Origin: Escherichia phage NHEP36 | Length of the DNA: 64,000 bases | Sequence record: PQ511151.1 | Reading direction: 5' to 3' (one strand) | Shown here: positions 43,893-44,441 of the stretch, piece by piece | How positions within the stretch are numbered: the stretch's first letter is position 1 | Layout: each line of letters starts with the position of its first letter | Notes under the pieces: model-generated | What the model saw: only the letters and a program-made list of their open reading frames with translations | Databases searched by the model: none | Told to the model about the DNA's origin: nothing | Position numbers and translations under genes: made by a program

Positions 43893-44441
43893 ATGGCTAA
43901 AATTATTTTAGTAGATGGCCCGGATAATGCCGGTAAAACAACTTTCATTAATGACATAATGGAAATTAGTGAAAGATATGTAAAAATTGATTTCCCTAAA
44001 CGAACAGTTGATGGACGTTTCGATGTTAAGTCTCGAAATGAAGTTGGCTGTTTCGAAACGATGTTGAATTATTTAGACCCTACTAAGATTTATCTGTTAG
44101 ACCGTGGATATATTAGTAACTGGGTTTATGGACGTATTCGACAAGATGCGGACTCGGTTCTTGACGTTTATGAACAGGATTATGTTCGTCTTTGCCAAAA
44201 CCATGATGTGTTCACAATTATTTTAACACGTAACGAAATGACTGAAAGTTTTGAAGACGACCTTATTACTTTGTCTTCATTCGGTTTTAATACAGTCATT
44301 TCACATTTTGAAGAGTTTGCAATTCATAACAAAATCCAAACGTATCAATTACTTAATCATGATGGTGCTAACAGAGTTATAGGATTTAATGCAAGCGAAC
44401 GTAATGATTTGATTACAGAAATTATCAAATGGGCTCGTTAA
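43893..44441 (+). CDS. P-loop nucleotide kinase-like protein (thymidylate/dNMP kinase fold)
   Basis: Walker A GPDNAGKTT and LDRGYIS resemble TMK-type kinases. Confidence 0.55.
   Translation: MAKIILVDGPDNAGKTTFINDIMEISERYVKIDFPKRTVDGRFDVKSRNEVGCFETMLNYLDPTKIYLLDRGYISNWVYGRIRQDADSVLDVYEQDYVRLCQNHDVFTIILTRNEMTESFEDDLITLSSFGFNTVISHFEEFAIHNKIQTYQLLNHDGANRVIGFNASERNDLITEIIKWAR

Follow-up and report, generated by a model that had tools for sequence, protein, structure and literature searches.

The 64,000-nucleotide (nt) stretch of Escherichia phage NHEP36 analysed here (PQ511151.1, one strand, 5′ to 3′; hereafter, the window) carries at positions 43,893–44,441 a gene for a P-loop kinase of the thymidylate kinase (TMK) fold, which lies between a DNA glycosyltransferase gene and uvsX and is the orthologue of RB69 gp45. 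Neither the gene nor the suspicion that it has a role in DNA modification is new to the literature: a 2021 survey (PMC8056088) describes RB69p045 as a thymidylate-kinase homologue that is “presumably” in the modification pathway, and Lee et al. 2026 (PMC13326640) list RB69 gp45 as a “nucleotide kinase” in their Table 1 and place gp45–gp55 in the pathway. What we add is a quantified, cassette-level association between the kinase and synthases of 5-hydroxy-deoxycytidine monophosphate (5-hydroxy-dCMP, 5hodCMP), together with a description of the atypical features of its active site, and on this basis we weigh what the kinase may phosphorylate.

The kinase gene and its cluster

The open reading frame (ORF; Table 1) is a genuine, conserved gene rather than a chance ORF, because its product matches PHROG 761 (‘thymidylate kinase’) with an E value of 3.6e-45, is identical to RB69 gp45 (RB69p045, NP_861735.1, annotated in RefSeq as “thymidylate kinase”) at 180 of 182 residues (99%) and at a syntenic position, has full-length homologues in 343 phage records, and evolves with a low ratio of non-synonymous to synonymous substitution rates (dN/dS of 0.04–0.20 across three close relatives, a comparison of small counts in which synonymous changes exceed non-synonymous ones). 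The identity of these homologues ranges from 99% down to roughly 35%, and the phages that carry them infect Escherichia, Shigella, Klebsiella, Enterobacter, Serratia, Yersinia, Proteus and Acinetobacter, the Acinetobacter phage homologues being about 46% identical to the window protein. The surrounding 5-kb locus is 97–98% identical to many Mosigvirus genomes (including TU01, APCEc01, ST0 and JN02), and the order of genes from DNA polymerase to uvsX is that of RB69p056 to RB69p044. We regard the identity of the kinase and its genomic context as near certain.

The upstream 299-residue gene ends with a stop codon at 43889–43891 and the kinase ATG begins at 43893, a gap of 1 nt, and this spacing, together with a GAGGA motif inside the 3′ end of the upstream gene, suggests that the two are co-translated. 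The stop codon of the ThyA homologue overlaps the start of the glycosyltransferase gene at 42992, so that, judged by this overlap and the 1-nt gap before the kinase, all three genes look translationally coupled. The gene for uvsX (44541..45713; Pfam T4_UVSX_C, E value 1.1e-38) starts 99 nt past the end of the kinase ORF. A scan of 40700–44700 for promoters and terminators gave counts no higher than in shuffled sequence.

The kinase gene is the last gene of an arabinosyl-5-hydroxycytosine cluster, whose gene roles, including the name ‘arabinosyltransferase 1’ for the glycosyltransferase, are taken from Lee et al. 2026 (PMC13326640). The same study demonstrated 5hodCMP synthase activity for RB69 gp48, tied the signature L143E, D169N and N177D to 5-hydroxy-dCMP synthesis, reported mono- and poly-arabinosylated cytidines in RB69 and DLP3 virion DNA, and, citing He et al., assigned all steps from ribulose 5-phosphate (Ru5P) to uridine diphosphate (UDP)-arabinofuranose (UDP-Araf) to the isomerase, the bifunctional arabinose-5-phosphate kinase/uridylyltransferase and the HAD phosphatase. 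Because the window ThyA homologue carries this signature in full and stands in an RB69-type cluster (the order of genes over 37902..42234 is that of RB69p055 to RB69p049), the base made here is glycosylated 5-hydroxycytosine; phages of this group modify their DNA with arabosylated 5-hydroxycytosine and not with 5-hydroxymethylcytosine (hmC).

Table 1. Kinase gene, its motifs and the neighbouring cluster genes, in window coordinates
Feature	Position	Strand	Basis or remark
TMK-fold P-loop kinase gene, RB69 gp45 orthologue, 182 aa	43893..44441	+	ATG..TAA ORF
P-loop/Walker A GPDNAGKTT, residues 9–17	43917..43943	+	Conserved across family
FPKR motif, residues 34–37	43992..44003	+	Counterpart of FPQR/FPER in vaccinia and human TMK
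LDRGYIS, DR motif plus next helix, residues 69–75	44097..44117	+	Aligns with TMK DRY..S..Y segment
Acidic FEDDLI, residues 120–125, at position of TMK basic lid	44250..44267	+	Family conservation
GAGGA, ribosome-binding-like (Shine–Dalgarno-like) motif, within 3′ end of upstream gene	43883..43887	+	Sequence reading
299-aa DNA glycosyltransferase, RB69 gp46:47, ‘arabinosyltransferase 1’	42992..43891	+	PHROG 3891, E 2e-155
5hodCMP synthase, ThyA homologue, RB69 gp48	42276..42992	+	Pfam Thymidylat_synt, E 2.4e-15
76-aa ORF	42004-42234	+	Cluster member
Peptidase-U32-family protein, 391 aa, RB69 gp50 homologue	40832-42007	+	Pfam E 7.5e-11; weak UbiU match
HAD phosphatase	40389-40790	+	NCBIfam/Pfam
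561-aa NTP-transferase/kinase	38719-40404	+	NCBIfam/Pfam
Arabinose-5-phosphate isomerase	37902-38537	+	NCBIfam/Pfam

Linkage to 5hodCMP synthases

To place the kinase in its wider genomic context, we collected 63 IMG/VR loci with a query built from seven D169N-type ThyA homologues, taking up to 10 kb on each side, and searched their ORFs with a hidden Markov model of the kinase family. The query pattern demanded Asn at position 169, and all 63 loci are thus D169N by construction. The kinase was found in 57 of them, and in five of the six remaining loci (L058, L059, L076, L081 and one other) the contig is short and ThyA lies at its end or close to it. The sole kinase-less locus with full flanks, L073 (IMGVR_UViG_3300018410_000011, 10019–14564), contains ThyA, a 551-residue protein, an SIS isomerase and an NTP-transferase/kinase; in L067, which is related to it, a 177-residue kinase is inserted directly after ThyA.

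The commonest order in these loci is ThyA, glycosyltransferase, kinase, with the glycosyltransferase between the other two in most. This order occurs in loci with arabinose-activation genes, and also in roughly 20 loci that have no isomerase, nucleotidyltransferase or HAD homologue within 10 kb. A separate clade on large contigs has ThyA, a protein of 430–450 residues without a Pfam match, the kinase and an NAD-dependent sugar epimerase/dehydratase. Its loci (L065:5494-10555, L069, L071, L072, L082 and L083, on IMG/VR contigs of 37–294 kb) hold no homologue of the 299-residue arabinosyltransferase and no arabinose-activation gene, and these clusters may decorate 5-hydroxycytosine with a sugar in another way that has yet to be described. 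The kinase genes of Marfavirus and Dhakavirus lie upstream of ThyA, still inside the cluster and away from the glycosyltransferase.

The linkage extends to distant members of the family. For four distant representatives (P0045, P0057, P0059 and P0069), a Thymidylat_synt gene lies one to three genes away in every case, and each of these ThyA homologues carries L143E, D169N and N177D, a signature that is missing from the dUMP hydroxymethylase of phage M6. A tblastn search for cultured phages outside the T4-like group that carry the kinase, made with the distant member from L065, returned just weak matches in Bacillus and Shewanella phages. Because the kinase is retained beside D169N ThyA homologues across clusters with and without arabinose genes, it tracks the 5-hydroxycytosine base and the first transferase, not any particular sugar.

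Fold, motifs and family membership

The kinase family is small, since just 315 proteins among 1.84 billion representatives were found at E ≤ 0.001 (45 at E ≤ 1e-10) by an exhaustive profile search, which the distant members required; a word-indexed homologue search returned only 27 close relatives. All members whose context was examined lie on phage genomes or phage-like contigs. The family is acidic, with a median isoelectric point (pI) of 5.2, and the window protein has a net charge of −9.

Across 39 family representatives, G9, G14 and K15 of the Walker A motif, as well as D70 and R71, are invariant, and D11, N76, Y79, D122, D123 and N133 are nearly so, while F34-P35-K36 is invariant in the T4-like members. 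Comparison of profiles with hhalign matched the family to the vaccinia and human TMKs with 96% probability over the N-terminal half, where the P-loop Asp, FPxR, the DR motif and the Ser/aromatic helix all correspond (the vaccinia sequence used is identical to PDB 2v54); the C-terminal half gave no alignment with TMKs in this profile–profile comparison. The counterpart of D11 is Asp13 in vaccinia TMK (Asp15 in human TMPK), and in the profile alignment N12 takes the place of the P-loop Lys/Arg found in type I TMKs. The third position of the DR motif is Gly, where TMKs have Tyr or His, and the family alignments contain no Arg-rich (RxxxR-type) lid motif, the corresponding segment being acidic instead (FxDDLI). 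R113, which follows strand 4 and is mostly conserved in the family, might substitute for the missing basic catalytic residue.

Profile matches to TMKs in the PDB cover only residues 4–41 (E values of 0.003–0.07), and the closest structural matches of the kinase are true TMKs. The initial annotation had picked out GPDNAGKTT and LDRGYIS in this ORF near uvsX and likened them to thymidylate and deoxynucleoside monophosphate (dNMP) kinases; both motifs can be read from the sequence, at residues 9–17 and 69–75, and the resemblance is borne out by the TMK-like fold and the aligned motifs. The protein has the nucleoside monophosphate (NMP) kinase/TMK fold, a GxxxxGK[ST] P-loop (GPDNAGKT) and a DR motif (D70-R71), and it falls in the TMK/NMP-kinase fold class but does not pass the family tests for a true thymidylate kinase.

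An extra kinase beside gene 1

T4-like phages carry a dNMP kinase encoded by gene 1, and the initial annotation regarded the kinase described here as an additional one, with gene 1 elsewhere. A tblastn search of the window with T4 gp1 (the query being 100% identical to GenBank X03016) returned nothing better than an E value of 0.7. Phage JN02, which is 97.6% identical over the 5-kb locus (22515–27523 in that genome), has an annotated gene 1 homologue at 77846–78577 with 62.7% identity to T4 gp1, roughly 54 kb away, and from this spacing gene 1 of NHEP36 would be expected some 10 kb before the window begins. The converse possibility, that this is the only dNMP kinase of the genome and simply relocated, does not hold, as close relatives encode gene 1 elsewhere; a relocated T4 gp1 is ruled out by the negative tblastn search and by the gp1 homologue elsewhere in near-identical phages. 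Among phage records, 343 carry this kinase compared to 1550 with a gp1 homologue.

Comparison with known systems

The closest known counterparts are RB69 gp45 and DLP3 gp78 (the DLP3 locus appears as match H109), the ‘nucleotide kinases’ of the arabinosyl-5-hydroxycytosine clusters. The window kinase is the RB69 gp45 gene in a further Mosigvirus isolate, with shared neighbours and a shared position on the uvsX side, and we found nothing material that differs. The window protein belongs to the RB69 gp45-type class by orthology, by its adjacency to a D169N/N177D ThyA homologue and by the signature EGxDxxGK[ST], DRxxxSNxVY and FxDDLI, all three elements of which it contains.

The type I TMKs (human TMPK and vaccinia A48R, PDB 2v54) are just 9–19% identical to the window kinase. 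Whereas they have a P-loop Arg/Lys and a basic lid, the window kinase has Asn and the acidic FxDDLI, and is shorter at 182 residues. The T4 gene 1 dNMP kinase (PDB 1dek) and its RB69 counterpart gp159 are likewise phage P-loop kinases that feed modified pyrimidines to DNA, and T4 gp1 and vaccinia TMK are acidic, as is the window kinase family; the kinase shows neither sequence similarity nor close structural similarity to the T4 gp1 class. The 5-hmdU DNA kinases (5-HMUDK; M6 gp54 and ViI gp67) are also small phage P-loop kinases encoded together with a ThyA homologue in a hypermodification cluster. Their partners are aGPT-Pplase transferases, and no aGPT-Pplase-like gene occurs among the scanned cluster genes. 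M6 gp54 is basic (pI 8.7) and has no DR motif, whereas the window kinase is acidic and has one; membership of the 5-HMUDK group is ruled out, the hhalign match to M6 gp54 (82% probability) covering the P-loop region only.

The Rhizobium phage RL38J1 (Pootjesviridae), whose DNA contains hexosylated 5-hydroxycytosine, has the same gene order as here, with a D169N ThyA homologue (216), a glycosyltransferase (215) and a kinase (214). The profile similarity of gp214, annotated as ‘nucleotide kinase’, is marginal (hhalign probability of 81%, N-terminal half) and it has PR instead of DR, so that common ancestry with the window kinase is uncertain; given the marginal match, we dropped gp214 as a clear family member and keep it as an analogy. 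A second kinase at this locus (L023, 24791–29226), gp219, is annotated as a dNMP kinase and reaches just E 0.006 to T4 gp1. Two kinases near a 5hodCMP synthase are thus found together, in RL38J1, outside Straboviridae as well.

A U32-family protein in the same cluster

Two genes upstream of the 5hodCMP synthase, which is O2- and flavin-dependent, lies the gene for the U32-family protein. U32 proteins include the O2-independent hydroxylases UbiU/V, TrhP (ho5U in tRNA) and RlhA (ho5C2501 in 23S rRNA), and the cluster protein could supply an anaerobic route to 5-hydroxycytosine. Within the 63-locus set, its gene is present in the loci of enterobacterial phages and absent from Acinetobacter-phage loci (L047, L049, L050, L052 and L053; strictly aerobic host) and from Dhakavirus loci. 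The RB69 homologue, gp50, is labelled ‘sugar or heterocycle reductase’ by Lee et al. (PMC13326640).

Proposed role of the kinase and alternatives

We propose, with a probability of about one half, that the gene encodes a dedicated nucleotide kinase that takes up the 5hodCMP made by the neighbouring synthase and converts it into the diphosphate 5hodCDP. This reading is based on the TMK-type donor and acceptor motifs, the acidic, soluble character of the protein, the near-obligate linkage to 5hodCMP synthases regardless of the sugar and the report that efficient entry of 5-hydroxy-deoxycytidine (5hodC) into DNA needs a phage dNMP kinase (Lee et al. 2026, PMC13326640). The kinase would use ATP to turn 5-hydroxy-dCMP, or another deoxypyrimidine monophosphate much like it, into the diphosphate, and the modification module would thereby gain its own entry to the deoxynucleoside triphosphate (dNTP) pool. 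In T4-like phages it would work in parallel with the gene 1 type dNMP kinase, and the three-gene core of ThyA, glycosyltransferase and kinase, which occurs across very different phages, would be a self-sufficient module; we infer both what the enzyme phosphorylates and what a phage gains from two kinases. The idea in the initial annotation that the kinase handles a modified nucleotide is plausible because the gene sits in a DNA-modification cluster, and it stands with a correction to the base, which is 5-hydroxycytosine and not the hmC considered there.

Several observations weigh against a 5hodCMP kinase. A Pfam scan of the protein gave no PF02223 match at E ≤ 1, and the dTMP kinase model TIGR00041 scored 16.4 bits against a cut-off of 83.25. 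The protein has neither the basic P-loop residue of type I TMKs nor the Arg-rich lid of type II, and Asn12, the absence of a lid and a conserved acidic FxDDLI are unusual where a phosphate acceptor needs neutralising. The step itself is already covered in T4-like phages by gene 1 homologues, because RB69 gp159 turns 5hodCMP into 5hodCDP in vitro (Lee et al. 2026, PMC13326640). The legend to Fig. 3 of the preprint (bioRxiv 10.1101/2025.06.16.659550) names the co-expressed cognate dNMP kinases as “DLP3 gp78 and RB69 gp45”, which, if taken literally, would mean that 5hodC incorporation in vivo with the help of gp45 is already on record; the published version gives these kinases as the gene 1 homologues gp169 and gp159 (PMC13326640), and the wording of the preprint may be a numbering slip, or the construct may have been changed.

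Protein fusions may also count against this role. Eight distant representatives of roughly 314–357 residues (P0059, P0060, P0064, P0067, P0069, P0074, P0076 and P0120) carry a C-terminal HhH-GPD domain, which in our reading resembles the MBD4 glycosylase domain and keeps the catalytic Asp in GxGKYxxDSY, and such a glycosylase fusion could point to a role at the level of DNA. The fusion may instead reflect repair of deaminated modified cytosines, the two domains sharing a pathway and not a substrate; on its own, the HhH-GPD domain has homologues in the 5-methylcytosine phage Xp12. Fused genes adjoin a D169N ThyA homologue where the upstream flank is visible (L026 and L095/L096). The one at L026:8001-9074 lies between such a homologue and an FMN reductase plus an SIS-domain gene, and the one at L095:6205-7173, in a phage of the PolA/DnaB type, between such a homologue and a GT4-like gene, at a locus that also has a radical SAM gene. 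Another fusion, at L084:12520-13455 and downstream of a D169N ThyA homologue, joins a domain of the dUTPase_2 type (all-alpha NTP pyrophosphatase) to a protein that matches the family weakly (E 6e-6).

The main alternative is suggested by the absent lid and the conserved acidic pair, by the fusions to a glycosylase and by the overlap with gp1, namely that the enzyme is directed at a hydroxyl instead of an NMP, with the 5-OH of free or DNA-borne 5-hydroxycytosine, the nucleoside 5′-OH or a DNA-attached sugar as acceptor in a so far unrecognised, perhaps transient, pathway step. We consider this unlikely, as the relation to 5-HMUDK stops at the P-loop and M6 gp54, without a DR motif, is basic where the window protein is acidic (−9). 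Moreover, Lee et al. do not mention phosphate in their description of RB69 and DLP3 virion DNA (PMC13326640), an aryl phosphate at C5-O would be no obvious leaving group for a UDP-sugar-dependent glycosylation of the GT-B type, and the HhH-GPD homologues in Xp12 would fit deamination repair that merely shares the pathway. A specific form of this idea, a P-loop kinase of a new type, directed at bases or nucleosides, that phosphorylates the reactive 5-OH of the nucleotide or of DNA, protecting or marking 5-hydroxycytosine before glycosylation, or that salvages 5-hydroxy-deoxycytidine, would account for the lid-less acidic acceptor site, the retention beside gp1 and the MBD4-like fusions, and seems to us more doubtful still.

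The other readings are less likely than either a 5hodCMP kinase or a hydroxyl-directed kinase. Database annotation (PHROG 761 and RefSeq) and the best structural matches, which are true TMKs, favour a general deoxynucleotide or thymidylate kinase that raises dNTP supply without any link to the modified base. T4 gp1-type kinases, however, act on dTMP and dGMP and already handle both, the kinase is found in far fewer records than gp1 homologues (343 compared to 1550), the curated TMK thresholds are failed and a D169N ThyA homologue is adjacent in every context examined, which together make such a generic role improbable. Similarly improbable is an NTP-binding accessory protein without kinase chemistry, for example a partner with a stabilising or regulatory effect on the synthase or the glycosyltransferase: the atypical acceptor side, the missing lid and the tight, apparently translationally coupled adjacency to the glycosyltransferase gene fit such a protein, but the family shows no variation at the Walker A Lys or in the DR motif, as in an active phosphotransferase, and in Dhakavirus and Marfavirus loci the kinase gene stands apart from the glycosyltransferase.

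A kinase for a sugar or sugar nucleotide of UDP-arabinose synthesis, which the initial annotation had offered as a further option, is very improbable. The gene shares its cluster with arabinose-activation genes, and the Durham Collection paper names a ‘sugar kinase’ in the Mosigvirus cluster, which is most likely the C-terminal domain of the 561-residue protein. The route from Ru5P to UDP-Araf is nevertheless fully assigned to other cluster enzymes (PMC13326640), the fold and motifs are of the nucleotide kinase type, and the kinase stays by the synthase in roughly 20 loci without sugar-activation homologues within 10 kb and beside different sugar genes elsewhere. We therefore rejected a sugar kinase on the completeness of the pathway and on co-occurrence without sugar genes.

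Significance

The hypermodification of phage DNA with glycosylated 5-hydroxycytosine, defined only recently, blocks restriction enzymes and influences how sensitive the phage is to other defence systems. The synthase, the sugar-activation enzymes and the transferases of its pathway have been assigned, and the kinase is the remaining strongly conserved gene of the cluster. If it does something other than phosphorylate 5hodCMP, the pathway still lacks a step. If it is dedicated to 5hodCMP, the kinase would make up a portable three-gene cassette with ThyA and the glycosyltransferase, and this cassette could serve to find or engineer DNA modified by 5-hydroxycytosine.
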